Source: a virus. Taken from it: a stretch of DNA of 64,000 bases. The position numbers and the translations under genes were made by a program. Location of the stretch: positions 652 through 64,651 of the IMG/VR virus record IMGVR_UViG_3300025736_000018. One strand, 5' to 3'. This document shows positions 24,236 to 64,000 of the stretch, in pieces. Position 1 is the first letter of the stretch. Every line of letters begins with the position of its first letter. The notes under the pieces are model-generated. The model made no database searches, was not told where the DNA came from, and was given only the letters and a program-made list of their open reading frames with translations.

Positions 24236-24496
24236 ATGACAAACCAAGAAATAGCGGTTGAAATTGCTCAATGGGCAAATAATGGTGACGCCAAGAACTT
24301 AGAGGATATCGAATACAGGAAAATAGGGGATTTTATTTCAGTGAGCTATACCAGTATTTCCACAAGGGTAACTATTGAGTATAATTTTTTATCTGATTAT
24401 ATGCTTGTATACTATTCTCTAAATTTAATTGAAACACCTCGTTACGGAATATTTAACGTAAGGAGAGTAGTAGAACTATTTAGGAGTATGAAATGA
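24236..24496 (+). CDS. hypothetical protein
   Basis: 86-aa ORF. Confidence 0.45.
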   Translation: MTNQEIAVEIAQWANNGDAKNLEDIEYRKIGDFISVSYTSISTRVTIEYNFLSDYMLVYYSLNLIETPRYGIFNVRRVVELFRSMK

Positions 24497-39040: not shown

Positions 39041-39117
39041 ATTAAAGCTGTAACTTATTATGAGAGTTTGTATGAGTGATTGGTTGACTAAATAGCTAAA
39101 TTTTTATAATAAATAAC

Positions 39118-39209
39118 TTACTATTTTTGCCTTTTCTTTTATATTATCATTGTAGTATAAGAAAGGGCATTATTTTATTATAATTAAAAGAAAGAAGGAA
39201 AATAAATTT
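39118..39209 (+). promoter_or_regulatory. reiterated promoter cassette (degenerate copy)
   Basis: CTTACTATTTTTGCCTTTTCTTTTATATTATCAT ... AAGGAAAATAAATTT-ATG. Confidence 0.4.
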
Positions 39210-40010
39210 ATGCAAATATCACACGAATCACCGTTATGCTTATTAGAAGAGAGTAGAAAATATAATGATTATGATTATGCTCTAGTTCATCTATTTGATA
39301 GTAATGGCAAATATTATAATTTTTTTGAAGAGTCATTGAAATTAGGAAGACGCGTTATTTTAGATAATAGTATATTTGAACTTGGTACCGCTTTTGATGC
39401 AGAAGAGTTTTCACAATGGATTCACACATTAAATCCGACTGATTATATAGTTCCAGACGTTTTAGAGGATTGTGATGGAACTATTGCACAGTTTGAGAGT
39501 TGGATAGAGAATCATGGAGATCTACCAGGAAATAAAATAGGAGTAGTCCATGGAAAGACATATGAAGAAATGGTTAAGTGTTATCAATATATGGAACGAA
39601 ATGCTGATAAAATAGCTTTTAATTTTGTTGATAAAGTGTATGATGATTTTTGCATGCAAGGAGATATTGGACTTGATTTTGGTAGAATGACTGGTAGAAT
39701 GGATTTGATCCAAAAAATGGTTGAAGATGGTATCATTAATACAAATATAAAGCATCACATATTAGGTTGTGTATTACCTCAAGCAGGTAAGTTTTACAAA
39801 CAATTTGATTGGATAGAATCCGTTGATACATCAAACCCTATCATTCACGGTATACTAAATATTAAATATCAAGAACAAAAAGGCTTATTTACAAAGAATA
39901 AAATAAAAATGGTTGATATCTTTGATAAAAAAGTTGATAGAGAACAATGGAATGACATACAATATAACATTGAACAATTCAGAAAGATTTGGAGTATAAA
40001 TGAACATTAA
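39210..40010 (+). CDS. hypothetical protein; candidate TGT/DpdA-like 7-deazaguanine transglycosylase
   Basis: sits between QueC and FolE2; ILDNSIFELG loosely resembles the TGT-family LDSGGFQ motif. Confidence 0.3.
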   Translation: MQISHESPLCLLEESRKYNDYDYALVHLFDSNGKYYNFFEESLKLGRRVILDNSIFELGTAFDAEEFSQWIHTLNPTDYIVPDVLEDCDGTIAQFESWIENHGDLPGNKIGVVHGKTYEEMVKCYQYMERNADKIAFNFVDKVYDDFCMQGDIGLDFGRMTGRMDLIQKMVEDGIINTNIKHHILGCVLPQAGKFYKQFDWIESVDTSNPIIHGILNIKYQEQKGLFTKNKIKMVDIFDKKVDREQWNDIQYNIEQFRKIWSINEH

Positions 40011-40833
40011 TGATATAAAACTACTTAATAATGATACTGTATTTATGATGACCTGTGGGAAGGTTAAATATCATTTTGAATATGATGTGCCGTTACATAA
40101 ACTTTACAAAGGAGCATTTCATAATGCAAGACAAGATTTTATAAATTTAGTCGCGGGTAAAAATAATTACTACTACGTCACACCATCAGGTCCAGGGATT
40201 GTTTCTGCAACAACATTGTGTGGTTATTATGATATGATAACGCCTAATTGTAAATTAATCGATGAAACTTTTATAATCAAACATAGAGAAAATGCATATA
40301 AACATTCTCCAATTCTTAAAACTGCAAAAAATGTATATTATATTGGTGACATTAGATATTTTACTTTTTTACAAAAAGTTTTTTATGATAAAAATATTAT
40401 TATGATTTTTAATGAAAAATCAGGTATGGGGACTCAAATAGGGCTTTTAAGAAGGTTTGTAAATTATTATAATAAGCCAACATATTTTAAACATTTAAAA
40501 ATACAAGATGACAATAAAATTATAATTCTTTATAAGAGAAATAAAGTAGAATTTCTTAATGTCTTTACAAAAAAAGATAATTTATATATTAATGATGTTG
40601 AGATAAAACCACATACATATATTAATAAATTTTTGAAAAATAATAAAATAGACGTGGCAAAATACATACCACGTTCTAATTCAAGAATATTATTATCAAT
40701 AGTTAGTAAAATAATTAATCCAGTTTTTGGCTGTAACTGGGTAAAGGAAGAAATTAAATTTGACGATAAAATTGATTATTATTTAAACAAATACTTCAAT
40801 AAAAATATTGTTAAATTATTAAAGGAAACATAA
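40000..40833 (+). CDS. hypothetical protein
   Basis: 277-aa ORF. Confidence 0.5.
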   Translation: MNINDIKLLNNDTVFMMTCGKVKYHFEYDVPLHKLYKGAFHNARQDFINLVAGKNNYYYVTPSGPGIVSATTLCGYYDMITPNCKLIDETFIIKHRENAYKHSPILKTAKNVYYIGDIRYFTFLQKVFYDKNIIMIFNEKSGMGTQIGLLRRFVNYYNKPTYFKHLKIQDDNKIIILYKRNKVEFLNVFTKKDNLYINDVEIKPHTYINKFLKNNKIDVAKYIPRSNSRILLSIVSKIINPVFGCNWVKEEIKFDDKIDYYLNKYFNKNIVKLLKET

Positions 40834-41361
40834 ATGAGAATAGCATTATCCGGTGCCCAGAGTGTTGGAAAATCTACAATATTGAAGGCAATGAAAAAAT
40901 TGCCTGAATTTAGTAATTACGAATTTGTAGAAGAAATTGTCAGAAATTTACATAAAAAATATGGAATTCAAATTAATGAACAAGGAAACGGAGACACTCA
41001 GTTGATGATTGCTAACGCTCATTATTTTAACGGATTCAAAAAGAATGTAGTTCTGGATAGGTGTATATTGGATTGTCTTGTTTACACTCACTTATTGGAA
41101 GATAACATTGAATATTGGATTTTTAACTATATACATAATCTATGGGAAAGGGAAATGGAAAAGATTGATTACGTCTTTTACTTTCCACCAGAGTTCAAAA
41201 TAGTTGATGATGGTTTCCGGAGTTTAGATGAAGAGTTTCAACTAAAGACTCATGAAGTTTTTCACAACTATATTGGTCGAAATAATGTAACCAATGTACA
41301 TACAATTATTGGAACGGTAGAGGAAAGAATGAAAAAAATAAAAGATATAATAGGAGTATAG
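40834..41361 (+). CDS. P-loop NTPase/kinase (AAA_28, NadR-kinase-like)
   Basis: Walker A IALSGAQSVGKSTIL. Confidence 0.45.
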   Translation: MRIALSGAQSVGKSTILKAMKKLPEFSNYEFVEEIVRNLHKKYGIQINEQGNGDTQLMIANAHYFNGFKKNVVLDRCILDCLVYTHLLEDNIEYWIFNYIHNLWEREMEKIDYVFYFPPEFKIVDDGFRSLDEEFQLKTHEVFHNYIGRNNVTNVHTIIGTVEERMKKIKDIIGV

Positions 41362-41367
41362 AATTAA

Positions 41368-42318
41368 ATGAGTTTACCCGACGTACAACAAAACACAACT
41401 GGATTTAAAAAGCTTCCAATAGAGAAAGTTGGAGTGAGAGGAATCAAAGTTCCCTTTCATATATTCCAGAAAGGTAATTCAAAAAGCTTCAGTACAATAG
41501 CAACAATTTCAAGCTACTGTAATCTTGTAGAAGATGTTAAAGGGATAAATATGTCTCGCATTAGCAGAGCAATTAATGAAGTGTTGCAGAGAAATAAAGA
41601 TGGATTTACAAATTTAAATGATTTTGTATATGCGCTTCAAGAGGCTCATGGAGCAACTGATATTTATATTAAGGCAAATTTTGAATATTTATATGATACA
41701 TTATCTCCAATTGAAAAGGTATCGTCAATAGAGCCGGTCAATATTACATTTGAGAGTAAACTAAAAGATGATAAATTATTCAACTACATTACAGTTAAAA
41801 CTACTGAGATGTCATTATGTCCTTGTAGCAAAGAAATGTCATTATTAAAAAATAACCTGACAATGACTGAGAGTTTACTTATACAACATGCTCAATTTCC
41901 TCCGGTATTACTTAATAAAATAAACAATGCTGGCTTTGGAGCACATAATCAAAAATCTACAATTGAGGTTACATTTGAATTTATAGAAGGAAGAACAATG
42001 TGAATCGAAGATATAATGGAAATTATTAGAGAAAATGTATCATCTCCTACATGATCAACTCTTAAAAGAGGAGACGAGAAATATGTAACTGAAAGGTCTT
42101 ATATGGGTGGGTATTATGATGAGAATAAGAAATTTGTAGATACTGGCGGTGGTCCAATGTTTGTAGAAGACATTGTTAGAAATATAGCTTTTGAATTAGA
42201 TAAAGAATTAGATAACAGAATATTAGACTATTCTATTATAGTTAACAATCATGAATCTATTCATTCAGACGATATAATGGCTACTGCAATAATGACAGCA
42301 GGGCGAGAATTAAAATAA
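41368..42318 (+). CDS. folE2: GTP cyclohydrolase I type 2 (FolE2/MptA-like; two in-frame TGA)
   Basis: LPDVQ...IEKVGVRGIKVP, MSLCPCSKEMS, C-terminal HESIHSDDIMATA; the 41368 and 42103 ORFs share one frame. Confidence 0.6.
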
Positions 42319-42325: not shown

Positions 42326-42400
42326 GTTACTATTTTTTGTAATTTGCTTATATTATATATATATGTAAGATTAAAAAAATATAACTTGGAGGTTATTAAA
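42326..42400 (+). promoter_or_regulatory. reiterated promoter/leader cassette (copy)
   Basis: GTTACTATTTTTTGTAATTTGCTTATATTATAT then AACTTGGAGGTTATTAAA-ATG. Confidence 0.55.
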
Positions 42401-42679
42401 ATGAGAGAAAGAACACAGGTGCAGGATTTTAAAGCAGAAAGAAAGTTAAAATATGTAAGTTCACATGCAAATAAGATTTCAAAAGATGATATGCAGTTGA
42501 TCTATAATGAACATGATATAGAAAAAAAGCGCACAATGGTTATTAAAATCATAAATGACTTCGCATACAAAGGTAAGCAAGCGCTTTTTTTGAAAAAAGT
42601 TAAAAGTACTAATAGTACTATAGGGCTAGATATAATAGCTTCAAATCTATACTTATTCGCTGAAGGACTTTATGTATAA
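42401..42679 (+). CDS. hypothetical protein
   Basis: ATG after the leader. Confidence 0.5.
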   Translation: MRERTQVQDFKAERKLKYVSSHANKISKDDMQLIYNEHDIEKKRTMVIKIINDFAYKGKQALFLKKVKSTNSTIGLDIIASNLYLFAEGLYV

Positions 42680-45600
42680 GGTATATTTAGCAAGACTCGA
42701 AAGAGGTCAACTTCCAGGTTGACCTTATTGTGTATATAAAATAGGTATTACTCAATTTGATAATGCTCTTATACGATTACGATATGCAGGTGCTGATGAG
42801 CCCAATCCTATTATAAAAACATTTCCAATAACTAAAATTATAAAGACAATTACTGTTGAAAATGAAGATCAAGCATTAAAAATTGAAGCAGAGATCATGA
42901 AAAGAACTATTAATTGAGCAAAGGATAAGAGATTTCACAATTGATACGAACCAGATCAAGTATCTGGAATTACTGAAATGCGAAAATGAGATAGAGCAGA
43001 GGTTCGATATGTGACTCACTTAATGAATAATACTCAGTTAATACTCGAGGATAAAGAAGTTATATTTTTTAAAAAGGAACAATTAATAATGAAACAAATA
43101 TTTAACATACATAATCATAGTACATTTTCAATACATGATGGAGTAGGTACTCCAGATCAGTGAGCAAAATATATCAGCGAAAATCCAGAGCAACATGTAC
43201 AAGCAATATCATTATCTGAACACGGTACACTAAACGGAATGATGGAAACTTTTAATGCAGCAAAAAAATATAATTTAAAATATATGCCTTCGGTTGAAAT
43301 ATATCTTGAAGATAAATATAATTTTGATAATCCACGCGAAAATCAAAAAGGTCATCTTGTTTTATTTGGAGTAAACAAGAGAGGTTATGAGCAAATAATT
43401 CAAATTAATAATTTAGCTATTCAACGTGGGCAAATACTTAAAATGAGAAGCGGAAAGCGAGTTACTGTAGTTACATTAGATATATTAGAAGAAGTAATTA
43501 GAGACGAAAGAGGAAACGTAAAATGTTCAGGAGCTTGCGTTGGTGGATATTGGAATCTGCCTATTCTTAAAAATAACGATATTAGAGCTGCTCATGAAAA
43601 TCTCATTAAAATAATGGAAATATTTGGTAAAGAAAATACTTATATTGAATACCAAGTATACTTAGATGATACGGATAAGCAACTTAGAGTAAATTGTGCT
43701 AATAAAATTTTTAAAGAGAAATATGATCTTAAAGCTATTGTAACTTCTGATGCTCATATAATTAAAAAAGACGATGTAAAATATCAAGCGGTTGCTGTAG
43801 CAATGGGTTGGAAAACAACATTGGAGCAATTTCTTAAAGTAGGCCATCTTCATTATTCAGTTTGGTTAAAAAATTCTGATGAGTTTTTTGAAGCATTGGA
43901 AATTAAAGAATTTGGAATAACAGAAGAGGATATGAGTGAAGCAATAAATGAAACGCTTAATATTTTTGATGAATTAGAAGAGATAGAATTATTTCAACCT
44001 CAAGTGTTCACATATCATAATAGTACAGAAGAAGAAAAATTACAAAAGTTTTCTGATCTTGTTTATAGTGGCTGGAATGAAAAAATAGATGGTATTATTC
44101 CAGTGGAAGAGCGTACACAATATATGGAACGTTTAGCTTATGAAACAAAATTATTACGCAAGAAAAATTTTATTGACTATTTTTTAGCTGTAAGTGAAAT
44201 TGTTGAAGAGGGTAGAAAACAAGGAATTGTATTTGGTGTAGGTCGTGGCTCAGCAGCTTCAAGTTTGGTTTCCTATTTGTTAAATATTACTAATCTAGAT
44301 CCAATAAAATATAATTTGATTTTTGAAAGATTTATTAGTGAAGATAGAATTGATTATCCTGATATTGATGTAGATTGCTCAAATAGAGAAGATCTAATAA
44401 ATATTATTCAAAGTCTCTATCCAAATAGTGACGTTACTGTTGTTGCTAATAAAAGTAAGTTAGGTCTCAAAAATTTAATTAATTATATGTTTAAGGTTTT
44501 TAATATTACATATCCAAAGAAAGACTATGTTTCTTCTGGATACTACTTTTCAGATTTAGTTGACAAATATAATCTTGATCAATATGATGTTGATTCGTTT
44601 ATGGAATTAGCTGAAGTAGAAGATTTAGAACAACATTTTAATAATAAATTTCCTAACTATAATCTTCACTATATGTTTAACTTATTAATTAAGAACCTAT
44701 CTAACATAGGTATTCATGCAGGAGGAGTTTGTATTCTTCCTAAGGGACAAAGTATTGTTCCTCTGACACCTGTAGCAAATGATAAATATGCGCATGGCTC
44801 TGGCTATTCTGAATCTGGTAATTACAGAGAGTTAGAATATGTAGGTCAAATTAAATTTGATTTCTTAGGCATTAGAACATTACGTATATTTGAAGATGTA
44901 GGTAAATTATTAAGAGAGAAATATGATGATTGGAATTTAGATAGAGTAAATAAATTATTAGAATTTGAAGGTGTTAATGTTGATGATAATATGGTATATG
45001 ATAGAATTAATACTACACTTACAGACGGATTTTTTCAAATTAGTTCTAGCGGAATGAAACAATTAATATGCGATCTTAAGCCTTCTAATATTGAAGAGCT
45101 TGCCCAATTGATTGCTTTATATCGTCCAGGTCCATTACAAGCTGGAATGAATAAAACTATGAAGGGAGTAAAGAATGGAGAGATAAAAGAAAGATCTCTT
45201 TGGCCTGAAGACTTACTATCTCACTTAGAGCCTATTATTAAGAATACTAGCTATCATATTCTATATCAAGAGCAATTAATGCATATAGGAAAAGCTATAG
45301 GAGATTATAGTATTATTGATTTAAATAATTTCCGTAATTTCTTATCTAAGGGGAATCCAATGAGAGAAAGTAATCCAAAGAAATTTGCTGAATGGCAAAA
45401 GAAATTTTACGATTCTTTCATTGAAAATGGAGCAAAAAAAGGAATTTCAAATAAATCGTTAGAGTTACTATGGGAAAAAATGAAGCAATTCTCAAAATAT
45501 TCATTCGTTAAAGCACATGCTGTTAGTTATGCACATAACGCCTTTATGTGCGCTTACTTATCACAATATTATCCAATAGAATGGTATACTGCAATGCTGC

Positions 45601-46481
45601 GTCATGAAGATCCTATAGAGTTCTTGCCAATTGTTAAAGAGCAAATTGAACAATTAGGATTAGAGATTCAAATTATCCCTCCGCAGATTAATAATATTTA
45701 TCGCGAATCAACTAATATTAATAATAAAGTTATTATTTTAGGTATTAATCAAATTAAAGGAATTGGCGTTAGAGCATCTGAAGAGTTAAACAATATTGCA
45801 AATATTCACTATGACAATTTCCAAGAGTTTCTCACATCAAAAGATTATTCTAAGCGGGTAATTAATAAAGGAATTGTGGAAAAGCTAATTAAAATTGGAT
45901 TCTTTAATACTATAGAGCCTGATCGTGCTAAATTATTAATCAAATATATGAAGTCTATAGTTAAACTTAAGAAAGGTGAGAAGCCTCCTGAAATTAATCG
46001 AAGTAATTTTTTATCTAAACTATATAATTTCAATGCATCAGAAGATTTGTTTTTCTTCAAAGCTGAAATGAGTATGATTGGAACCTCATTAACTTCATTT
46101 CCATATCAAGCTTTAGCTAATCAAGTAGATGCTATGGTACGAGACGATGTAAGAAAATATGCACGTGGTGAAGAAATTTACTTAGAAGTTTTAGCTGGTA
46201 TTGATTCTATTAAAATTAAACAAACTAAAACAAAAAAAGAGTTTCTAAGTCTTAAATTGAGAACTATTAGTGGTAAGTTTATATGGTGTAATTTGTTTGA
46301 TAGCAAAATGAAGCATATTGAAGAGCAATGGCAATTAAATTTAAAGAATGAAGATTATAGTGATACAATATTGATGTTTTACTATACAGAGAGTGGAAGC
46401 TGGAAGAATCTTTTAGATTTGGTACCACTACAAAAATTTATAGAAGTAAAAGAACAGGTAGATAAAAATGGAAAAGATTAA
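42672..46481 (+). CDS. dnaE: DNA polymerase III alpha-like replicase (DnaE/PHP) read contiguously with an N-terminal T5orf172/MUG113 domain; six in-frame TGA, all in the first 165 codons
   Basis: MYKVYLARLERGQLPGW(TGA)PYCVYKIGIT matches the T5orf172 start; no stop before the PHP motif IHNHSTFSIHDGVGTPDQW(TGA)AKY; 1080-aa TGA-free DnaE core from 43239. Confidence 0.6.
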
Positions 46482-49784: not shown

Positions 49785-49792
49785 TTATTTAA

Positions 49793-49861
49793 GTTACTAT
49801 TTTTTGTAATTTTATTATATTATATATAAGTAAATTTAAGAATAACTTGGAGGTTATTAAA
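49793..49861 (+). promoter_or_regulatory. reiterated promoter/leader cassette (copy)
   Basis: GTTACTATTTTTTGTAATTTTATTATATTATAT then AACTTGGAGGTTATTAAA-ATG. Confidence 0.55.
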
Positions 49862-51812: not shown

Positions 51813-53321
51813 ATGATTAATGAAGAGGACAAGAACGTAAAGAGTCAAAAAAAATGAGCAATTGGAGATATTAGAAACGGATATCCGGTATTGCCATTAG
51901 AAGAAAGAAAAACAATTCTCTTGCTTAGTGACGATGCTAGAATGCATTCCGGCGTCGGGACTATGTCAAGAGAAATTGTTTTGGGCACCTGTCACTATTT
52001 TAATTGAGTTCAAATAGCTGGAGCAATTAAAAATCCAGATATAGGTAAAATAGTAGAGCTTTCGCAATCAACAGTAGATGCAACTGGCGTACCGGATGCT
52101 CAATTTAAATTATATCCAGTAAACGGATATGGTAATCCAAACGTATTAAGGATGGTATTAGCAAATGAACCTCAAGTTAACGGATTATTACATTTTACAG
52201 ATCCAAGATTCTGAGGTTGGCTATATCAAATGGAAAATGAAATTAGACAATCAATTCCAATAATGTATTGAGCTTTGTGAGACAATCTACCATACCCAAA
52301 ATGAAATAGAGATTTTTATAGAAGTTGTGATTTAATAATGAGTATTTCTAAACAATCAAAAAATATACATGATGTTGTATTAAAAGGTTATGCAAAAAAA
52401 GAAAATATTGAGGTTACATATGTGCCGCATGGCATAAATCCTAATGTTTTCTTTCCTATTGAAAATAAAGAGAATGATGTTGAGTATTCCAATTTTAAAA
52501 ATACAGTTCTAAATAGAGAAGAATATGATTTCATTATTCTTTATAATAATAGAAACCTCGGTAGAAAACGTACAGCTGATATTATGACTGCATTTCAATC
52601 CTTTAGTGAGAAGGTAGGTAATAAGAAAAAGCCTTTGCTACTAATGCGTACAGATATTAGTGATGATGGAGGTACAAATCTTCATGCAGTATATAGAGAC
52701 CTAATGCCCGAGATTAATGTAAAGTTTATACCAAGTAAAATATCACCTAGTCAAATGAACTATTTATATAACATGTCAGATTTAACAATTAATGTCTCTT
52801 CAGCTGAAGGATTTGGATTAGCTTCTGCAGAATCTATAATGGCAGGTACTCCGATATTAGTTAATTGTACCGGTGGGCTTCAAGATCAATTAAGAATGGT
52901 CAATGATGATCATTCACCAGTAGAATTTACAGAAGATTTTCCGAGTAACTCTTGTGGAGTACATAGAATTCATGGTCCATGAGCATTTGTAGTTTGACCT
53001 CAACAAAATCTGATAGGCTCTCCGCCAACTCCATATATCTATGATGATAGAGCAAGCATTAATGATATTACAGAAAAGATGTATGAAGCGTTTAGCTTAT
53101 CTAAAAAGAATATGAATGATAGAGCAGTGAAAGGACGTAAGTGAATATTAAATAATCTATCATCTCCCATTATGTGTGAAAAAATGACGAAAGATATTTC
53201 CAAATGTGTATATAGTTTCAAAGGTAGAAAGCATTTTGATATTTTTAAAATAGAAAGCAATGAGAAAGATGATAATACACTTGCTGGAATATGAGATGAA
53301 ACAATTAAAAAGTGATTATAG
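51813..53321 (+). CDS. glycosyltransferase, GT-B fold (GT4-like), about 11 in-frame TGA
   Basis: 502-aa frame from ATG 51813 to TAG 53319-53321; MNYLYNMSDLTINVSSAEGFGLASAESIMAGTPIL matches the GT4 C-terminal motif. Confidence 0.7.
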
Positions 53322-53331
53322 GTTTTAAAAA

Positions 53332-54981
53332 ATGAACTATAGAAACAATTCAACAAATATAACAAAAGTACTTTATGGGCCTGATTTGACAAAAGAATTA
53401 CAATCAGGAATTGAAAAGCTCGCAACAATAATTGCATCAACACTCGGTCCTAGGGGAAAAAATGTAATTATAAATAATAAGAAGAATAATATCCCTTTCA
53501 TTACAAACGATGGAGCTACCATAGCAAAGAGTATCTGTCTTGATAATGATTATGAAAATGCAGCAGTACAGCTCTTGAAACAAGCAGCATTAAAAACTGA
53601 GTCTGATGCTGGTGATGGAACAAGTACTGCTATTGTTTTGGCTAATGCAATTATAATGAATACAAGAACTGCAATGGAAGAGTATCCAAATCTTAATGTT
53701 AATAAGCTAAAAAGAGATCTTGATTATTGATTAGAAATTGCATTAGGATATATTGACAAGCAATCATTTGAGCTAAAAACAATTGATGAAGTAAGACATA
53801 TAGCTACAATATCAGCAAACAATGATGAGAGTATAGGAAACATTATAGCTGAAGCAATTGAGCTGGTTGGTAATGATGGAATAATTAACGTAGAGGAATC
53901 TCAAACAGGACTTACAGAAGTCATTAAAGTAGTTGGAATGGAAATTAAAAAGCCAATTATATCACCATATTTCATCAACAATCAACAAAAAGGAAATACC
54001 GATTTTAACGAAGAAACATATATATTAATTATAGATGATAAAGTATATCAACTAAGTAAACTATTACCAGCTCTTCAAGCTGCAACTAAAAGTAATAAAC
54101 CTATATTGATTATAGCTGAAAATATTGAAGGCGAAGCTCTTAGTGGACTAGTTGTTAATGCAGTTAAAGGTAACTTAAAAGTTTGTGCAATAGAAGCTCC
54201 TCATTTTGGTGACGAGCGTAGAAAAGCGCTTGAGGATATAGCCAAATTTACAGGTGCAACAATTTTGAGCAGTAAATATGGACCTCACACATTAGATAAT
54301 TTTGAGAATAAATTTCTCGGTGTAGCAAAGAGAGTTACTGCCGGATCGAGCTGTGTTATTCAAGAAGGTAAAGGTACAGGGTTAGAAGCTTATAAAGAAG
54401 GATTAAAACATCAGCTTAAAGATGAAGATAATAAACTTGCACTTAGAGACAAAGAAATATTAAATATTAGATTAGCTAACTTATCAGCAAACGTTGCAGT
54501 ATTAAAAGTTGGAGCTAGTACTGATGCTGAATTAATTGAAAAAAAAATGAGAATTGATGATGCAATTAGAGCTACTAAATGTGCTATAGAAGAGGGAATA
54601 ATTACAGGTGGAGGAATGTCCTTTTATAAAACATCATTAATATTAGGAAGAGAGTGAGATAAAAATTGAAGTGATGAGACAAGTGTCGCTAAAGCAATAT
54701 TGCAGAAATCATTACAAAGTCCACTACAAACAATAATTCAAAATTACGGTGGCGATGAAAATGAAATATTAATTAAGATTTTTAATGAAGATACTCCAAA
54801 CGTAACATTTAATGCTAATGATGGAAAAATAGTCAACGCATTTGAACACGGTATTATTGATCCAGTGAAAGTAGTTAAGAGCGCTTTAACAAATGCAGTA
54901 AGTATTGCAGGAATGATAATTACAACAACTGCAGCAATAATATATGATAAGGAAAAAAATAATGAATACATCAGTTACTAA
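53332..54981 (+). CDS. groL: GroEL-like chaperonin (three in-frame TGA)
   Basis: DAGDGTSTAIVLA, equatorial ATP-site GGG, C-terminus IDPVKVVKSALTNAVSIAGMIITT; the 53332, 53938 and 54700 ORFs share one frame. Confidence 0.8.
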
Positions 54982-56275
54982 GAAAAAAGAAGAAAAAGAG
55001 AAAGACAAAACATTTTGCTTACTTCATGGACCATTTAACACAGTTTCTGGTTACGGAGCACATGCAAGAGATATTGCAAGAGCAATAATTAAAAAATACC
55101 CCGATTGAGATATTAGATTATTTGACTGTCCATGAGGAAACACCCCAAGAAACTATTTAATGAAGTGAAGAGACGATGATTTAATAAATAGATTATTACA
55201 TGACGGGAAATTACCGCGAAAACCAGAAATATATATTCCAGTACTAATACCTCCTGAATTTAATCCAATAGGAAAATTTAATATTGGTATTACAGCCGGG
55301 ATAGAGACGACATTATGTCATCATTCATGATTAGAAGGTATAAATAGAATGAATTTAAATATTGTACCATCTAAGCATGCTAAAGACGTATTTGAAAAGT
55401 CTAATTACAGCAAGAGAAACAAAGGTAATAATGAAGTCATCGGACAATTAAAATCTGAAAAGTCTATTGAAGTTTTATTTGAAGGTGTAGATACGGAAAT
55501 GTTTCATAAAACGGATATGATTTCTAAAGAGGTCGCTGATTGTATGGATCAAGTTGAAGAGTCATTTGCATTCTTATTTGTAGGGCATTGATTAGACGGA
55601 GCATTTACTCATGATAGAAAAGATATTGGTGGATTAATAGAAACGTTTATCAATACATTTAAAAACAAACAAGTAAAGCCAGCATTAGTCCTAAAGACTA
55701 GTGGTGCGACATTTTCAATTATTGATAGAGAAAATATAATGGAAAAGATAAAGCAAATAAGGCATGATGATACTATGCCAAATATATATCTTATTCATGG
55801 TGATATGTCAGACAAGGATATTAATGGACTATACAATCATCCAAAAATTAAAGCTATGATATCATTAACGCACGGAGAGGGATATGGAAGACCATTAGCT
55901 GAATTTGCCGCTTGTGGTAAGCCAATTATTGCAACAAACTGATCTGGACATATAGATTTTCTTCATCCTAATTATTCAGTATTAATAAGTGGTGAATTAA
56001 GAAATGTACATAAGTCTGCAGCTAGAGAAGGTATGATACTTGAAAATAGTCAATGATTTTATGCAAACTATGCGAAAGTAAAAGAAGCATTATTAGATGT
56101 ATATAAGAATTATGGAAAACACAAAAAGAAAGCTGTCAAGCAAGCTGATATAATTAATAAGCATTATACATTGGATGCTATGGCAGATAAGCTATTTGAA
56201 ATATTTGAAAAGTATCTACCTGTATTTCCAAAAGAAATTCAATTAGCATTACCAAAATTAAAGAAGGTCGAGTAA
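54962..56275 (+). CDS. glycosyltransferase, GT-B fold (six in-frame TGA)
   Basis: SLTHGEGYGRPLAEFAACGKPIIATNW(TGA)SGHIDFL matches the GT1/GT4 nucleotide-sugar motif; start overlaps the GroEL end. Confidence 0.65.
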
Positions 56276-56881
56276 ATGAAAAAAGAAGAAGAGAAGACTA
56301 GTAGAAGTCTTAGTGATTTAAATAGTAAAATAATTAAAGTAGTTGAACCAAATGTAATATTTTTTTATGCTGAACGTTTAGACTATGAAAGTTCATTAGA
56401 GCTTAATGCAGCTATATGTGAGGTAACAAATTATGTTGAAAAGACAAACAAAACACAAACAAATCTAGAAAATTATACTGACCACATTGACTTACATATT
56501 TTTTGTCCAGGTGGACTAGTCTCTGCTGCATTTAGTAGCGCAAATATAATTAAAAGTAACTCGATAAATATTCATACATATATTGACGGATATGCAGCAT
56601 CTGGTGGAACAATAATTAGTATGGCTGGACATAAGAGATATATGTATAAAAAATCAGTTGCGCTAATTCATGAACCTTTTGGTGGGTTCATTGGAAAAGC
56701 TTCTGATTTTGCAATTGAAAAAGAAAATGCTGATTTAGAATTTGCTAGAGTATTAAATTATTACTCAGAAATTATGGATATTTCGAAAGATGCCATTTCT
56801 GAATTATTGAAAGAGGAGAGATTATTAAACGCAACACTTTGTCTCAAGTATGGAATTGTTGATAAAGTATTACAAAATTAA
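56276..56881 (+). CDS. ClpP-like serine protease (S14 family), candidate prohead protease
   Basis: FCPGGLVSAA (oxyanion loop), GYAASGG (Ser), ALIHEP (His). Confidence 0.7.
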   Translation: MKKEEEKTSRSLSDLNSKIIKVVEPNVIFFYAERLDYESSLELNAAICEVTNYVEKTNKTQTNLENYTDHIDLHIFCPGGLVSAAFSSANIIKSNSINIHTYIDGYAASGGTIISMAGHKRYMYKKSVALIHEPFGGFIGKASDFAIEKENADLEFARVLNYYSEIMDISKDAISELLKEERLLNATLCLKYGIVDKVLQN

Positions 56882-56903
56882 AAAAAGAGAATTAAAAAAG
56901 AAA

Positions 56904-57617
56904 ATGCAAAAACAACAGACGAAAGAGCAGTTAGAGAAAATATTTAAAGACAGAAAGTTCAACGTAGAAATTAAAGAATTTGAATCATCAGCAGAGGACG
57001 GTCTCAAATTTGTAGAAAAACGAGATGATATTGAGGATAGCTCAAAAGATATCCAGCTCGATGAATTATATGAAAATGAAGATGTGACTCCAGCAAACAT
57101 TCAAGCACAGCTTGATAACTATGAAGAAATGGAAGAGTTTCCTTCAACAGTAAAAAGAATTCAATGTCCGAGATGTAGTTCAATGAACTGTTTCGAAGAA
57201 GAATTCCCAGAATTATCAGATGGAACAAAAATGAATGGATATTTATGTAAGAATTGCGGTTATGTTTCCAATAGTGAATTTAAACACGACAGTATTTATT
57301 ACACAAATGCAATTAATAGACTTCCTACTATGGTAAAGAATCTAGAATTCTATGATGAAAAAAGAGAAATCTATTGGTTTCTTGCAATAGTGCAAACCGA
57401 CAATGGTTATGTATTTCCAGAACCTGATGAAAAAGATTGACATTGAACATATTGACCAACTATATTTATTCCGGAAGAAGAAAAAGAAAACTATCCAATA
57501 AAAGTGGACGGAGAAACTATAGGCTATTACGAACATAGATATGATATCGATAAAGCTCAACAATTTGATAAGACAGACTTCTATAAAGCACTTAGAGCTG
57601 TTGGACTAGAAGAGTAA
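56904..57617 (+). CDS. acidic Zn-ribbon protein, possible scaffold (three in-frame TGA)
   Basis: CPRCSS...CKNCG; sits after the ClpP-like protease. Confidence 0.4.
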
Positions 57618-57626
57618 AATTAAACT

Positions 57627-58133
57627 ATGTCATCAAATTTTGCAAAGAAAAAAAAGAAGAAGAAAACCAGTACTAAAGATTTTTCTAGACAACATGAAAA
57701 AAATATTGAAAAGAAAATAAAAACTACACTTGGTAAGCTAACTCCTGGTATGATTGCAAGATTTAATTATAGGGGTAAGGATGTACATGAGCCTCGCCCC
57801 TTAGTACTTATTTTAAATCCAAGATGAAAGAATCATTGTCATGCGATTGCATTACGTGTGCTAACTGAAGCAGAATTAATGCAATTAGCTAAAATGGTTA
57901 AACTTAGTGTTGGACAAAAAATAGCAAAAAAAGTTAAATTCTTACGATTAGGAACAAAGGCAGATATTGGAAACCCAGAAAGATTTTACAAACAAAAAAT
58001 AAAGCCTTATATGAGAAGAATAGATGAAAACGCATATCGTACATATAATACTCGCGGAATATCTAATGTTAATATTATTGATTATAGGTTTAAAGATATG
58101 GATCTAAGAACTTCAAAAAAGATTAAGAAATAA
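57627..58133 (+). CDS. basic hypothetical protein (one in-frame TGA)
   Basis: the 57627 and 57858 ORFs are in frame across one TGA. Confidence 0.45.
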
Positions 58134-58161
58134 ATTACTATTTTTAAAGGAAAGCTTATAT

Positions 58162-58402
58162 TATGATTAATACAATAGAAAAAATGGGGATCTTTTTAAC
58201 CAAGAAAAGATTTGTTAAAGCAACACAGCTTGATGAAATGGAAGAGATTATTGATAAAAACGGTGAGAAGTTTGTAGGCTTGCCAGGCGATTGAAAAATA
58301 ATTGATGAAAGCGGATACATATACTTCATAAGTAAATGAAAATTTAAAGAGTTGTATCAACCATATAATGATGCTGCATTTGATATGTATATAAAGTTAT
58401 AA
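58162..58402 (+). CDS. small protein with apparent +1 frameshift at AAAAAC-C-GGT (58255-58262)
   Basis: frame 0 MINTIEKMGIF...IIDKN then frame +1 GEKFVGLPGDW(TGA)KIIDESGYIYFISKW(TGA)KF...MYIKL*. Confidence 0.35.
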
Positions 58403-58414
58403 AAAGAGAATTAA

Positions 58415-58613
58415 ATGAAATTAATATGTGAGATCAAAGCAGTAAGTGATGCTTATAGAACAAGAGAAGAGTGTGGCTGAAGAGCAGGCAACGTGCAGAT
58501 TGGCGATGAGATAAGTAAAGTCATTGAAATATCAGATTCTGTAGTACGAGATACTCTACTTGTTGAATCTATAAAAAAAGAATTAATAGAGTTTATACAA
58601 AATTTAAATTAAA
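58415..58613 (+). CDS. small protein with apparent +1 frameshift at CTT-T-GTT (58559-58565)
   Basis: MKLICEIKAVSD...RDTLL then frame +1 VESIKKELIEFIQNLN*. Confidence 0.35.
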
Positions 58614-58631
58614 AAGAAGGAAGAAAAGAAG

Positions 58632-58847
58632 ATGAGAGTAAAATTTAATTATGAAGTTAACGAAATATTTCATGAAATTGAAATTGAAGCATGTAAAATT
58701 GAAGAAATAAAAAGCTTATTAGGTATTGTAATGTCTATAATTAATAATGAGTCAATGAAAGAAGTTCATATAGATCCGCTAGAAGACGAAGACGAAGGCG
58801 AAGGTGCTGCAGTTGATGAATTACCAACGACAGTGAAATGGAGATAA
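58632..58847 (+). CDS. hypothetical acidic protein
   Basis: 71-aa ORF. Confidence 0.45.
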   Translation: MRVKFNYEVNEIFHEIEIEACKIEEIKSLLGIVMSIINNESMKEVHIDPLEDEDEGEGAAVDELPTTVKWR

Positions 58848-58852
58848 ATAAA

Positions 58853-59170
58853 ATGAAAGTAGAAATTGAAGCTGATGATTATAATGCATTTAGAATCGCT
58901 TTGGAAGCTGCTGTAGAATTGATTAAGACAAAAAATCTTAAAAATACAGAAACGCATATACATTATCATTATAGCTATACATTTCCTAATTTTTGAGATA
59001 AGCCTGGTATCCCATTCTGGAGAGAATCCTTGTGGAATCCAGATTATCTAGATCAAATAACGTCAATATCTTGTGATGGAAGTGATTCAACTTATACATT
59101 TTCATCAACTTCAGATGAGCCAACTCATATTGATGGCATCAACTTTGACGGACCAATGAGTATATTTTAA
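58853..59170 (+). CDS. hypothetical protein (three in-frame TGA)
   Basis: 105 aa continuous: ...TFPNFW(TGA)DKPGIPFW(TGA)RESLW(TGA)NPDYL. Confidence 0.4.
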
Positions 59171-59192
59171 TAAAAAAGCTTAGGAGGAGTTT

Positions 59193-59858
59193 ATGATAAG
59201 TATTAGCTACGCGATTACCGTTTGTAACGAAGCTGAACAATTAGCTGAATTACTTGATAAGCTATTAGAAAAAATTGATATAAATGATGAGATAGTTATT
59301 CTTCATGATGAAGAAAATACAACACAAGAAGTTATAGAAGTTTGTAGAAATTATCAATATCAGTTTGGCAAGGGAATGGTACAAGGATTTTCACACAAGT
59401 TAAATAATGATTTTGCAGCACACAAAAATTTTCTAAATCAATGTTGCACGAAAGACTTCATCTTTCAAATAGACGCTGATGAAACTCCTAATTGTGCTTT
59501 ACTTAATAGTATTAAAGGAATAATTAATGAAAACCCCACTGTAGAGTTATATTATATACCTCGCATAAATACTGTTAGTAATATTACAGATGATCATATT
59601 AAGAAGTGGGGATGGAAAGTAAATGAGTACGGGTGGATAAATTTTCCAGATCATCAGAGTAGAATATATAAAAGAGATAATGAAAGAATATTTTGGGTAA
59701 ATCCAGTACATGAACGAATAATAGGTCACGAGCAGTTTGCACTACTTCCAGGACAACCGGAATATTGTCTATATCATAGAAAAGATATAAAGAAGCAAGA
59801 AGATCAAAACAAGTTTTATAATCAAATAATGAAAGGGCGTATAACGTTTACAAGGTAG
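59193..59858 (+). CDS. glycosyltransferase family 2 (GT-A fold)
   Basis: N-terminus ISISYAITVCNEAEQL and the DxD motif FQIDADE. Confidence 0.65.
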   Translation: MISISYAITVCNEAEQLAELLDKLLEKIDINDEIVILHDEENTTQEVIEVCRNYQYQFGKGMVQGFSHKLNNDFAAHKNFLNQCCTKDFIFQIDADETPNCALLNSIKGIINENPTVELYYIPRINTVSNITDDHIKKWGWKVNEYGWINFPDHQSRIYKRDNERIFWVNPVHERIIGHEQFALLPGQPEYCLYHRKDIKKQEDQNKFYNQIMKGRITFTR

Positions 59859-59864
59859 AGATAA

Positions 59865-61163
59865 GTGAAGAGAAAAGAAGCAATAGAACAATTTGTAAGT
59901 AACTTTAAAGAAATATATGGAATTAATAATTTTTGCCATAACGACAAAGACCCAAAGAAGGTATACTACTCAGGCCCTGTATTTGGAGAAGAAGAAACAG
60001 TTGCAATGATTGAAAGTATTCTGACTAGTAAATGACTTTCTGCTGGAGCTGCAGTAAATCAATTTGAGCATATGTTAGCTAAAAAGTATAATCAGAAATA
60101 CTCAATTATGTTAAATTCTGGAAGCTCAGCAAATCTGGTATTAATTAACGCATTAAAAATACTTTTTAAATGAGATAATAATAGCGAAATAATTCTATCA
60201 GTTGTGGGATTTCCAACTACATTAGCTCCAATAATTCAAAATAATCTTAAGCCAGTTTTTATTGATATTGAAATGGACACTCTTAATTTTGACATATCAC
60301 TTATTGAAAAAAAGATAAACAAAAATACAAAAGCAATAGTTATATCACCAGTTCTCGGTAATCCTCCAAACATGGATGAAATAACAAAAATAGCAACAGA
60401 ATATAATCTACATATTATATTAGACAACTGCGATTCGTTAGGTAGTAGATGAGACGATAAATATTTATCAGATTATGCAATTGCTAGTTCATATTCATTT
60501 TATCCAGCTCATCATATTACAACAGGAGAAGGTGGAGCAATAACAACAAACAATCAAGAACTAATTAAAATAGCAAGAAGTCTAATTAATTGAGGTAGAG
60601 CTTGTACATGCATTGGTGAAGAAAATTTAGGTAAAGACGGTTCGTGTGGTAAAAGGTTTTCAAAATGACTAGATGGATACGATAAAATAGTTGACCATCG
60701 TTATGTGTTTTCTAATATTGGATATAATCTTAAGCCGCTCAATTTGCAAGGAGCGATAGGTATTGAGCAACTCAAAAAGGTTGATGATTTTTTTATAAAG
60801 AGAAGAATTGCGAAATTTATAATAGGAAGATTATTTACTGATAATATTTATGGAGTGAGAATACCTGAAGAGAACAGAGAAGCGTACATAAGTTGGTTTG
60901 GTACTCCTGTTATATGTGATAATAATGAAATAAAAACTAAGTTAGTTCAACATTTAGAAAATAATGACATTCAAACGAGAAATTATTTTGCTGGAAACAT
61001 ATTAATACATCCAGGATTTAAACATCTAGGAAATTATAATGATTATCCAATAGCAAATGAAGTGCTAGATAGGGTATTTTTTGTTGGTGCAAGTCCTCAA
61101 TATGACAGCAACACTTTTCAGCATATTAAAAGAGTATTGAAGGCGTTTAAAAATGGTAATTAA
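59865..61163 (+). CDS. DegT/DnrJ/EryC1-family PLP enzyme, ColD/E1-like sugar 3-dehydratase (five in-frame TGA; GTG start)
   Basis: YYSGPVFGEEE...SKW(TGA)LSAG...NSGSSANLVLINAL; PLP-Lys position is His in SFYPAHHITTGEGG, as in ColD (SFYYSHH). Confidence 0.65.
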
Positions 61164-61239
61164 AGCAATATGTCACTACATGCCTTGAGATTTAGATTTA
61201 GCAATACTTAATGTTAATACAATAAAAAAATCAAGCTAT

Positions 61240-62055
61240 ATGCTACAAGATGGTGATAAGCTAATTGTAGCACTTACATTAAATTTATCAAGTTATATAG
61301 TTGATTGGTATAAATCTGAAATTTCTATAGATCTTTTAAAAGACAAGTTTCAAAGATTGTCACATATTATTGGAAATACTTCAAAAATAAGCTATCAGCT
61401 AAAAGTATTTTTAGGAGATGCTCTTTACGGACATCTTGACTCTCAAAGAGAGTCAATAAAAGAAGATAACGTTGATGGTTATATTCAATATTGCCCAGAT
61501 ATATATTTCAGTGAAACACTAATTCCTTTATATTTTCAAGCTGCCAAAATGATTAAAGAAAAATATTTCGTTGTTGCAGCACAGACTCCTAAACTATGAG
61601 ACAACACATGAGACGTACTACTTAATAGTAGATATAAAGATATGAATTTTAAAAATATGCAATATCAAAATATTAATATATATGATATTAATAATGATAT
61701 ATCACAGAATCAAAATTGAGGAAGACTTATACTTTTGCCAACAATTAAGTTTGCTGGATGAATGGATTATTACAGTAAAGGCTTTGCAGAACAATTATTT
61801 CCTGTACCTGATGATTGACACGGATATGGCTCTTGAGACTTATATTGTATAATACTTGGTAATGATCTAATACGTAAAGGATTTCCGCTTAAACAATATG
61901 TTATAGAAAATCAAATAATTTCACAACGATATTTATTTGATGGAGAGAACGTACATAATAATACACTAACAATGCCGTATCGAGAATTAATTTGTAGAAA
62001 GAATATTCCTGATCAAAGAGAAGTATTTGAATCAACATTACAACAAAAACTTAAT
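61240..62055 (+). CDS. hypothetical protein (six in-frame TGA)
   Basis: 271-aa continuous frame checked codon by codon; stop TAA 62053-62055. Confidence 0.45.
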
Positions 62056-62078
62056 GAGTGAAAAGCTTATGCAATAAA

Positions 62079-63074
62079 AGAAGGATTATAAAAAAAATGA
62101 AAGAAAGAAAACGTAAAAGAATATTAATCACTGGTGGATCTGGAATGGTTGGTCAATATATGAAAGATGAAGCAGAGCGTTGAGGTTATGATGTTTTTAA
62201 TAAAGTAAAATACTTATCAAGTGTTGATTGTGATTTACAAAGTACAACACAAACACGAGCTTGCTTCAAAATATTTAAACCTGATATAGTAATACATTTA
62301 GCAGCTAAAGTAGGCGGAATTATTACAAACTCACTAGAACCTGTGGAGTTTTATGAAGAGAACACATGTATTAATATAAACGTTGTTAAGATGTGTCATG
62401 AATATAATGCTAAATTAATAGCAATGGGTAGTACATGCTCATATCCAGATAAAGTTGATAAGTATCCAATGACAGAAGAGGATATATTTAATGGACCTCC
62501 TACTTGAGATCATTTTGCATATGCAATGTCAAAGAGAGGATTAATTACTCATATTGAATCATATAACAAAGAGTATAATAAAAATTGATGTTATATTATA
62601 CCATGTAATATATATGGAAAATATGATAAATATGATCAATATAATGGACACTTTTTATCATCTTTTATAAAAAGAATTACAACATTAGTAGAAACTACAA
62701 CATCAATAGAGTTATTTGGTACTGGAGAACCTTTAAGACAACACATATATGCCGGAGATGTAGCAAAAATATTATGGATTATGATTAATCGTAATATTAC
62801 AGAAAGTTTTAATGTTTGTCCAGATGAAAATTTAAACATTAATCACATTGCTGAAACAACACTGCAAAGTTGTTTAAGAGAAGATTTAAAAATTGTACAT
62901 AACCCTACAAAACTTGACGGTCAGTATAGAAAAGATGTATCAAATACTAAAATGAAGAATATTTTTGAAGATAAATGTATATCATTTGATTTTACTCCAC
63001 TAAGCGCTGGTATACGTCTTGTATATGATTATTTAATAGAGCAGCAAGAGTCTTTAGAATTAGGTAGTTGGTAA
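62079..63074 (+). CDS. GDP-L-fucose synthase-like epimerase/reductase (Fcl/ColC-like; four in-frame TGA); start unresolved
   Basis: ILITGGSGMVGQ, HLAAKVGGI, GSTCSYP, YAMSKR; no in-frame ATG/GTG/TTG between the stop at 62076 and the conserved N-terminus. Confidence 0.6.
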
Positions 63075-63080
63075 AAAATA

Positions 63081-63302
63081 ATGAATAAGGAAATAGCTAT
63101 GAAATACGGAGATTTAATTAGATTAAGAGAAGAGTTTATGGAAGAATCATGTTATGAAAGTTTTAGAGATCACACATTTGTTTTTATGGGTGAAATGAAT
63201 CAAATGCCAGGTCATTGTATTTTAATTCAGATACACACGGGGAAAGTACACGTAGGTTATCATACAGATAGCTTTAGACTATTAACAGATGATGAAGTAT
63301 AA
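63081..63302 (+). CDS. hypothetical protein
   Basis: 73-aa ORF. Confidence 0.4.
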
Positions 63303-63303
63303 A

Positions 63304-64000
63304 ATGGAAAAACACGATAAAATTAGCAAGGTAATGATTACTACAGAAGATGGTTTAAAATTTGACTTGGCTGATGCTGCACGAAGGTTTCCGGAAATTA
63401 TACGTGATGAAATTGATAGAGAAATATTAGAAAAGCTTCGTAAATCAGCACCAAAATTTCCAAAAGAGATGAAAGTAGCACTAATCACAGGTATATCAGG
63501 TCAGGATGGAAGCTATTTAGCAGAGCTATTACTTGAAAAAGATTACGAAGTGTGAGGTACTCTTAAAAGAAATTCAGTAGCTGAAAACCAATCTAGTAGA
63601 ATTAATCATATTAGATCACAACTACATTTAGAGTATGCTGATATGACAGATATGGCGTCGCTAATACGAGTTTTATCTATGTGTAAGCCAGATGAGGTAT
63701 ATAACTTAGCAGCTCAATCGCATGTACAGATATCATTTAATCAACCAATATATACAACTAATACTATTGTAATGGGAATAATTAATTTGCTTGAAGCAGT
63801 TAAATTAATATGTCCAGAAGCTAGAATATATCAAGCATCTTCTTCAGAAATGTTTGGCAATAGTATTGATGAAGACGGATATCAAAGAGAAACAACGCCA
63901 ATGCATCCTGTGAGTCCGTATGGTTGTGCTAAACTATTTGCGCATAAATTATGTCAAACATATAGAGCATCATATAATATGTATATCAGTTGTGGAATAT
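63304..64000 (+). CDS. gmd: GDP-mannose 4,6-dehydratase (Gmd), 3'-truncated by the window edge; alternative start ATG 63469
   Basis: [28 protein letters not shown](TGA)-[34 protein letters not shown]. Confidence 0.8.

Follow-up and report, generated by a model that had tools for sequence, protein, structure and literature searches.

In a survey of recoded phages, a TGA suppressor tRNA was detectable in just 35% of code-4 phages, and replication genes were variably recoded (10.1101/2021.08.26.457843). A comparative study has proposed a recombination role for the T5orf172 URI endonucleases (PMC7824862), and the transglycosylase of Flavobacterium phage immuto_2-6A has been placed in the DpdA3 subfamily, which is credited with complete guanine replacement (PMC10516641). 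Here we describe a locus in a stretch of 64,000 nucleotides (nt) of viral DNA (positions 652 to 64,651 of IMG/VR record IMGVR_UViG_3300025736_000018; hereafter, the window) in which an upstream 139-codon open reading frame (ORF), which we call X, runs without a stop codon of its own into the gene for a DnaE-type DNA polymerase. The reading we favor, with moderate confidence, is that X and DnaE were ancestrally separate cistrons that have become joined by loss of a stop codon, and that the locus now yields both a fusion protein and free DnaE.

Like the surveyed code-4 phages, the source of the window has in-frame TGA where Trp is conserved, uses the codon to different extents in different genes, and has a TGA-poor block that carries tRNA genes; as in most of those phages, no TGA suppressor tRNA was detectable, here in the window and the 7 kb upstream of it. 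It differs in that genes for replication and nucleotide metabolism also carry TGA, in that a CUA suppressor tRNA is present even though TAG is a stop, and in its source, which is environmental rather than gut, as judged by sample names only (10.1101/2021.08.26.457843).

The joined frame and its junction

The features of the frame and its junction are as follows:

42672 to 43088, plus strand: X, a GIY-YIG-superfamily (T5orf172/MUG113-like) ORF of 139 codons with a family-conserved start and no stop of its own (from the frame, homologs and predicted fold)
42720 to 42989, plus strand: the four in-frame TGA codons of X (at 42720, 42915, 42942 and 42987, codons 17, 82, 91 and 106; from reading of the frame)
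43041 to 43088, plus strand: linker of 48 nt, in frame and stop-free, lying past the family homology
43065 to 43075, plus strand: T6A5 homopolymer tract (read from the sequence)
43072 to 43079, plus strand: ribosome-binding-site-like AAAAGGAA, 10 nt upstream of ATG 43089 (from duplex energy)
43089 to 46481, plus strand: DnaE-type (family C) DNA polymerase of 1130 codons with the conserved start MKQIFNIHNHS (from Pfam and the starts of relatives)
43161 to 43163, plus strand: sole TGA (Trp) of DnaE, in the PHP domain, DnaE codon 25 and codon 164 of the long frame (from alignment)

From ATG 42672 to the TAA at 46479-46481, the frame contains neither TAA nor TAG and spans 1269 codons. Its start overlaps the upstream ORF p92 (42401-42679; stop TAA at 42677-42679) by 8 nt, and the run continues through 139 codons to ATG 43089, which is codon 140 of the long frame and is followed by the PHP motif HNHSTFSIHDG; on all these points the initial annotation is confirmed. 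It had also placed five TGA codons in the first 139 codons and described the DnaE core as free of TGA. Five is the right number for the whole frame (codons 17, 82, 91, 106 and 164), of which four lie in X and the fifth, at 43161-43163, in the PHP domain of DnaE; the core is devoid of TGA downstream of 43163, but there is a TGA at 43161, 24 codons past ATG 43089.

We found the junction in seven contigs that derive from different samples and from JGI, ENA and Logan assemblies. Roughly 1.1 kb around it is 100% identical in four of these (L007-L010), and another (L005), which starts just 38 nt upstream of ATG 43089, carries the identical T6A5/start segment. The remaining two (L056 and L057) represent a second haplotype with six single-nucleotide polymorphisms (SNPs) in 23.8 kb and zero indels. 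The run lengths of the T6A5 tract are equal in all seven and, since the junction is identical across these assemblies, the open frame is real and not a one-off assembly error; the stop or frameshift between 42672 and 43089 that resequencing might have brought to light is not seen in these contigs. A search by pattern for versions of the junction with homopolymers of other lengths gave zero matches in the metagenome_contigs and viral_contigs collections, which says nothing about heterogeneity because both collections evidently lack this phage; the pattern itself does match the window and five junction-containing loci. Gene callers disagree on the locus: a single 90% cluster holds predictions of 1269 amino acids (aa), of 1130 aa, and of 1080 aa plus 50 aa. 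The fused ORF is already present as a database prediction (P0008), and we found no description of it.

The segment between the two domains looks like a former intergenic spacer. Homology to the X family ends near codon 122, and in the one relative with the same gene order, the metagenomic scaffold ERZ23491197 scaffold_14759 (L006), the stop of the separate X gene falls opposite codon 124. The 48-nt linker parallels the 54-nt spacer of L006 in position and length, two of the six haplotype SNPs fall within it (at 43049-43050), which makes it the stretch under least constraint, and residues 135-139 at its end have a predicted local distance difference test score (pLDDT) below 50 in the AlphaFold model. 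A change of one base in the T6A5 tract would close the frame: T7 gives an in-frame TAA, and with T5 or A4, X ends at a TAATAA (43084-43089) that overlaps ATG 43089. The AAAGGAA site serving ATG 43089 has a duplex energy of -5.6 kcal/mol, equal to those of the genes at 38372 and 40834, a value that 13% of non-start ATGs also reach. In front of those two genes, the upstream TAA directly abuts the next ATG.

Relatives of the two parts and the decoding of TGA

Pfam matches across residues 146-1088 of the long frame (PHP PF02811, 8.5e-19; DNA_pol3_alpha PF07733, 1.8e-50; DNA_pol3_finger PF17657, 4.4e-26; HHH_6 PF14579, 9.3e-11) indicate that the polymerase part has the domain order of a DnaE (Pol III alpha) protein. 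Pfam detected no OB-fold (PF01336) in the window DnaE, unlike in its bacterial matches. The counterpart of M140 is the first residue in two relatives, P0011 (59% identical) and P0012, in the latter after removal of an extension added by the gene caller; the starts of two others, P0009 and P0010, read MNKFLNLHAHS and LEKLLNLHAHS. No N-terminal T5orf172-like domain turned up on other DnaE proteins: none of the best 120 listed DnaE homologs has a domain of the GIY-YIG clan, and the fusion to DnaE is unique among 64 X-family representatives and ~4300 DnaE hits. An extra domain native to the N-terminus is therefore not what these proteins indicate, as the relatives start at the PHP motif and a ribosome-binding site and ATG are kept at the boundary. 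As a separate observation, the next relatives, P0009, P0010 and P0012 (46-47% identical; loci L058 and L059), contain an intein (Intein_splicing/Hint) after KYSF(N/V)K, which is absent from the window DnaE and from that of L006.

The most informative relative is L006, which has the same order of genes as the window (QueC, DpdA3, TMK-like, GCHY-1, p86, X, DnaE). Its DnaE is 59% and its X 43% identical to those of the window, and its DnaE shares the N-terminus MK(Q)IFNIHNHST. There, X is a separate gene of 125 aa that ends at a TAG stop (3956-3958) and is followed by a 54-nt spacer with a strong ribosome-binding site, AAAGGAGG, and by a TTG start for DnaE that gives 'MKIFNIHNHSTYS'. All Trp codons in L006 are TGG, whereas in the window X lacks a stop and its Trp is encoded wholly by TGA. 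Because the genes are separate in L006 and the DnaE relatives start at the equivalent of M140, the sequence comparison indicates that the ancestral state is two genes and that ATG 43089 is the ancestral DnaE start.

The initial annotation called the N-terminal segment a typical T5orf172 domain, which did not hold up. The 139 residues of X match nothing in Pfam or PHROGs even at E<=10, whether TGA is translated as W, G or X, and so do not reach the gathering scores of PF10544 or PF13455. Homologs of X are 34-58% identical to it; the close ones, seven of them at 50-58% identity, carry no precomputed Pfam domain, and majority-consensus sequences of the family likewise gave no match to the GIY-YIG clan. 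Among 1.84 billion proteins, the family has 64 representatives, nearly all of 100-180 aa; a profile-based search returned 55 hits, all of 100-153 aa and none annotated by Pfam. Only distant members come near the Pfam cut-offs, the best being P0198, which over nearly the whole of each profile scores 18.9 bits for T5orf172, where the cut-off is 20, and 19.4 bits for MUG113, where it is 22.3.

Several observations nevertheless tie X to this superfamily. The AlphaFold model of X (pLDDT 80.3) matches the fold of the GIY-YIG nucleases SLX1, UvrC and I-TevI, and its viral structure matches include proteins annotated as T5orf172. When the family profile was compared with the PDB, the best sequence matches, both weak, were the GIY-YIG proteins UPF0213 (E 0.012) and UvrC (E 0.5). 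The order of motifs is that of T5orf172 (PF10544) and MUG113 (PF13455), with a GIY-like Tyr on beta-strand 1, then Y/F-K-x-G-x-T, Arg, Glu and …TE…. Conserved family positions are Y5, K23-x-G25, R35, A68…E72 and G99-I-T-E102, and Y5, K23, G25, R35, E72, G99 and E102 are all kept in X. What sets the family apart from T5orf172 and MUG113, besides the lack of a Pfam or PHROGs match for X and its close relatives, is a FHNWYEP…SGITEMRKW block of its own in the close members, a length of ~120 aa without an additional DNA-binding domain, and an association with deazaguanine clusters. The modest scores, the motifs and the predicted fold together support placing the X family next to T5orf172/MUG113 in the GIY-YIG/URI superfamily, whose marks are a fold made of a three-stranded sheet and helices and motifs in the order GIY…YIG…R…E. 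The conserved Arg and Glu are compatible with nuclease activity, no proof of it.

We also considered, and rejected, X as a free-standing GIY-YIG homing endonuclease. Such enzymes combine a nuclease domain with a C-terminal DNA-binding module (typically >200 aa in total) and are present sporadically between collinear genomes; members of the X family, at 100-153 aa, have no second domain, and their partner gene and context are conserved. A 10-bp hairpin (GAGGTCAACTTCCAGGTTGACCTT) is present 30 nt into X, at 42703-42726, and its 3' arm contains codon 17, the first TGA; this part of X varies among family members, and L006 lacks the hairpin. A scan for sigma-70 promoters and terminators around the junction was at chance level save for this hairpin.

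Outside the fused lineage, X is almost always a stand-alone gene. Homologs are free-standing in 43 of the 44 other loci: those of 40 of the 41 IMG/VR loci, and the one of L001, have their own stop 3-102 nt past the end of the homology, and one runs off the contig. None of these homologs has an in-frame TGA, and none has a DnaE gene within 5 kb. The setting is instead one of DNA modification, as QueE, QueC or DpdA3 (the homolog of p266, see below) is encoded within 5 kb of X in ~30 of the 44 loci; DpdA3 is directly downstream of X in five of them and within ~0.5 kb in a sixth, and FolE follows X in six others. A small partner gene precedes the X-family member in at least 13 loci. In the window this is p92; the 86-aa gene at the same position in L006 is 49% identical to it, and in 11 other loci a 71-77-aa gene directly upstream shows, by eye, a p92-like C-terminal motif. 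Together, these associations make the X family look like an accessory of the DpdA3 module, and point to a product that may act on DNA as part of a modification or recombination machinery, in keeping with the recombination role proposed for T5orf172 URI endonucleases (PMC7824862).

The long frame depends on the reading of TGA. Because the in-frame TGA codons sit where relatives have Trp or another aromatic residue, the alignments indicate that this phage decodes TGA as Trp. Opposite codons 91 and 106, the X family has near-invariant Trp residues; codon 164 corresponds to W in P0011 and P0012 and to Y in P0009 and P0010; and L006 has TGG opposite all three. The placement on near-invariant Trp also led us to reject TGA as Gly (code 25). 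Across the window, treating TGA as sense raises plus-strand ORF coverage from 74% to 88%, with most of the gain beyond 36 kb, and turns TGA-rich ORFs into full-length Pfam domains (glycosyltransferases, Cpn60, DegT and epimerase), while TAG still serves as a stop 24 times. The neighboring dUTPase, QueC and GCHY-1 genes also need TGA to be Trp. Since DnaE contains the TGA at 43161, the polymerase itself would require TGA decoding, and the needs of DnaE and its neighbors imply that TGA must be decoded whenever the region is expressed.

Within the joined frame, the two parts use Trp codons differently: X has four TGA and no TGG, compared with one TGA and 12 TGG in DnaE (Fisher p ~0.002, by our own arithmetic). 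There is also a strong gradient along the window. Trp is mostly TGG at 1-37000, where the tRNAs, RNA ligase, RtcB and CCA-adding enzyme are encoded, and almost exclusively TGA at 51813-64000 (glycosyltransferase, 11 TGA and one TGG; Cpn60, three and none; likewise the ClpP-like, DegT and epimerase genes). Two TGAs in tandem (31356-31361) close a 20-codon ORF just ahead of a plausible Band_7 gene start, and several TGAs (21675, 24494, 47383, 13412) sit 2-18 codons ahead of TAA or TAG gene ends. TGA may thus retain a stop function in some genes, and its meaning may vary with context or timing. At window positions 4378-4452 there is a tRNA gene with a CUA anticodon (an amber suppressor, labeled 'Pyl' by ARAGORN), even though TAG is a stop and the recoded codon is TGA.

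Competing readings of the joined frame

If two cistrons were joined by stop loss, the starting point would be a p92-X pair directly upstream of dnaE, as in L006, and probably in one transcription unit with it. The stop of X would then have been lost, with the former spacer of ~50 nt happening to be open and in frame. A homopolymer indel in T6A5 is the likely cause, because one base more or less in this tract restores a stop. By our estimate, ~17 spacer codons being open by chance in DNA of 30% guanine-plus-cytosine (GC) content is not improbable (~0.3), and a spacer of such length would be both open and in frame about once in ten stop losses, so that no special explanation is needed. Ribosomes starting at ATG 42672 (with an AAGGA site, and coupled to p92) would read through into dnaE and produce a predicted fusion of 1269 aa that contains …EVIFFKKEQLIMKQIFNIH… across the junction and the junction peptide EVIFFKKEQLIMKQIFNIHNHSTF, whereas initiation at the conserved ATG 43089, with its own ribosome-binding site, would give the ordinary 1130-aa polymerase. 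As the fusion requires five TGA codons to be decoded and free DnaE only one, incomplete suppression would favor free DnaE. We infer that both products are made and that the fusion is, most likely, an accident that is tolerated and not a two-domain replicase by design: tolerated, because the lineage recurs in seven assemblies, although such recurrence is no sign of selection.

In these terms, the initial annotation was right in part on both of the alternatives it offered. A GIY-YIG-like domain at the N-terminus of the replicase is encoded at the ORF level, T5orf172/MUG113-like at the level of the superfamily, but by descent it would be a separate gene, as judged from the stand-alone family, L006, the starts of the DnaE relatives and the Trp codons. 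As for an upstream ORF gated by recoding with the polymerase also made from ATG 43089, an independent start is plausible given the -5.6 kcal/mol site, but the gating would not be different in kind, as DnaE needs its TGA at 43161 as well.

Several observations weigh against the stop-loss account. The nearest relative is distant (DnaE 59% identical), so that the timing and mode of the stop loss are deduced rather than seen. Only two near-identical haplotypes (99.975%) carry the fusion, too few for selection on the open frame to be measured. We found no tRNA(UCA) that would decode TGA among the 10 tRNA/tmRNA genes in the window and the nine in the 7 kb upstream, these regions being part of a genome of ~176 kb; a tRNA-Trp(CCA) gene is present. 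Finally, two members of the X family are themselves fused to other proteins, which leaves room for a functional fusion: P0175 to a UvrD-like helicase, on a standard-code phage-like contig (L011, 4001-5941), and P0154 to a DpdA3-family protein (phrog_19058). In both, the X domain is N-terminal and is followed by a 25-40-aa linker and a DNA-acting enzyme. They differ from X-DnaE in that their partners are not polymerases and that P0175, at least, is in the standard code, and each is a single representative.

These two proteins lend some support to an adaptive fusion, in which the replicase deliberately bears an N-terminal GIY-YIG-like (URI) module that would keep at the fork a nicking or DNA-binding factor serving the DpdA3 system or recombination-dependent replication, and the fusion is the main or an essential product. 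The retention in X of every family-conserved residue and the presence of the fused lineage in seven assemblies are also consistent with this, as is the recombination role proposed for the T5orf172 family (PMC7824862). We nevertheless consider it unlikely: the fusion has no counterpart among the 64 family representatives and ~4300 DnaE hits, the genes are separate in the syntenic L006, and Trp codon usage is discordant between X and DnaE. In addition, the linker resembles a spacer in length and position, the ribosome-binding site and ancestral start persist there, and a single homopolymer indel would give either of two different stops. Family-C polymerases do tolerate N-terminal domains ahead of PHP, as in PolC, which counts on the side of an adaptive fusion. 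A more specific version, to which we give little credence, would make X an accessory of the DpdA3 system, by which guanine in phage DNA gives way to a 7-deazaguanine; X would be deliberately tethered to the replicative polymerase so as to couple nicking or base exchange to the fork, and the four extra TGAs, along with internal starts at ATG 43089, would set the ratio of fusion to free DnaE.

Less probable again is that no fusion is made at all because frameshifting or transcriptional slippage on U6A5 or U-AAA-AAG ends X nearby, DnaE then coming only from ATG 43089, possibly by translational coupling. Stops are indeed close by in both other frames (the TAATAA overlapping ATG 43089 in +1, a TAA at 43103-43105 in -1), but out-of-frame TAAs are expected anyway at 30% GC. 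The AAA-AAG and the GGA-rich stretch behind it are reminiscent of the dnaX lysine slip site, but the heptamer is imperfect, with U rather than A before AAAAAG. A TAATG stop-start overlap would suit the usual junction type of this genome, as seen in the TAA abutting ATG at 38372 and 40834. Against this, the fold of 43000-43180 is not significant (z-score -1.7) and so offers no outstanding stimulatory structure, Rfam found tRNAs and a tmRNA only and no known frameshift element, and even at efficient frameshift sites a zero-frame fraction remains.

We regard it as very doubtful that X is barely translated, either as a decaying gene or because TGA acts as a stop when the operon is expressed, so that ribosomes halt at codon 17. 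Four TGAs in 106 codons, the first of them inside the 10-bp hairpin, would fit such a picture, as would the lack of a tRNA(UCA) in the window and the 7 kb upstream and the signs that TGA may still stop in some genes (the tandem at 31356-31361 and the TGAs 2-18 codons before gene ends). But X retains all conserved residues and has no frameshift, TAA or TAG; two of its TGAs fall exactly at near-invariant Trp, the pattern of a recoded functional gene and not of decay; and DnaE, dUTPase, QueC and GCHY-1 need TGA to be Trp as well. An error of sequencing or assembly, whereby a miscounted homopolymer conceals a stop, is extremely improbable: a single-base error in T6A5 would suffice to make or remove one, but seven contigs, which cover two haplotypes and come from different samples and assemblers, agree on the tract, and for systematic Illumina errors a run of 6 nt is on the short side.

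Genomic setting and implications

The wider setting of the joined frame includes four further features:

36683 to 42318, plus strand: complete 7-deazaguanine DNA-modification module, in the order QueD, QueE, dUTPase, QueC, DpdA3 (39210-40010), p277, thymidylate-kinase-like, QueF-like GCHY-1 (from Pfam on identical contigs)
42331 to 42400, plus strand: promoter-like and ribosome-binding-site cassette (…CTTATATTATATATATATGTAAGATTAAAAAAATATAACTTGGAGGTTATTAAA-ATG) that heads p92, X and DnaE
42401 to 42679, plus strand: p92, a small gene and the conserved upstream partner of X (from the ORF list; it matches phrog_12669, function unknown)
43057 to 43070, minus strand: exact inverted copy of the 14-nt core of the cassette (AAAAAATATAACTT), in the linker just ahead of the DnaE ribosome-binding site

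The window has a GC content of 30%, carries almost all of its long ORFs on the plus strand together with a tRNA array and a tmRNA, and matches metagenomic contigs of up to 176 kb, features that point to a large uncultured phage. Among 50,697 cultured or deposited phages, neither the window DNA (blastn) nor X (tblastn) found a match, so that none of these phages has X, and the DnaE matches were of only ~26% identity. A search of IMG/VR for loci related through the window DnaE returned no relatives. The tmRNA (9083-9456; Rfam 121 bits; tag ANNLQLAA) lies within a tRNA array of 19 or more genes, which continues beyond the upstream edge of the window, and a set of RNA-repair and tRNA-maintenance genes accompanies the array (an RNA ligase, RtcB and a CCA-adding enzyme with an HD domain; 6086-7252, 24493-25695, 32764-34251).

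The cassette upstream of p92 recurs in the window. Near-identical copies stand directly upstream of the gene starts at 8114, 14555 and 42401, with a variant upstream of 49862; they follow the ~70-nt pattern …CTTATATTAT(A/T)TATA…TGTAAGATT-AAAAAAATATAACTTGGAGGTTATTAA(A/G)-ATG (8047-8113, 14488-14554, 42331-42400 and ~49790-49861), and the core 14-mer occurs 10 times where 1.9 matches are expected. The cassette is probably a promoter specific to the phage, with its leader and ribosome-binding site. Together with the inverted copy in the linker, the cassette forms a 17-nt inverted repeat (42371-42387 and 43057-43073, 94% complementary) that flanks p92 and X; a recombination scar, a long-range RNA stem and an antisense promoter are all conceivable.

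The transglycosylase of the modification module, p266 (DpdA3, 39210-40010), shares 45% identity with the enzyme annotated as a DNA guanine transglycosylase in Flavobacterium phage immuto_2-6A; its identity to a CP220 protein is 44%. As in the window, the module of immuto_2-6A lies directly upstream of a polymerase, with the order QueD, QueE, …, DpdA, TMK, QueF, two small genes, polymerase, …, GroEL. The polymerase at this position is of family A in immuto_2-6A and a DnaE in the window, apparently a replacement by a non-orthologous gene. Neither of the two small genes in front of the immuto_2-6A polymerase is homologous to p92 or X.

As encoded, X-DnaE is a domain fusion by stop loss that involves a T5orf172-like module, and no other representative of the family is fused to DnaE. 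The locus provides a concrete case of how gene callers can give three answers in a recoded phage (1269 aa, 1130 aa, or 1080 plus 50 aa), and of a replicase whose synthesis would hinge on read-through of a single TGA. If the fusion is made and active, it would to our knowledge be the first family-C replicase with an N-terminal URI/GIY-YIG module, and the replisome would be physically linked to an accessory factor of DNA hypermodification or recombination. As it is most likely a tolerated accident, the importance of the fusion itself is modest. The by-product of the analysis may be a more useful lead: the small, unannotated GIY-YIG-like family, which recurs with its partner gene in DpdA3 clusters, is a candidate for a missing component of a system reported to replace guanine completely (PMC10516641).

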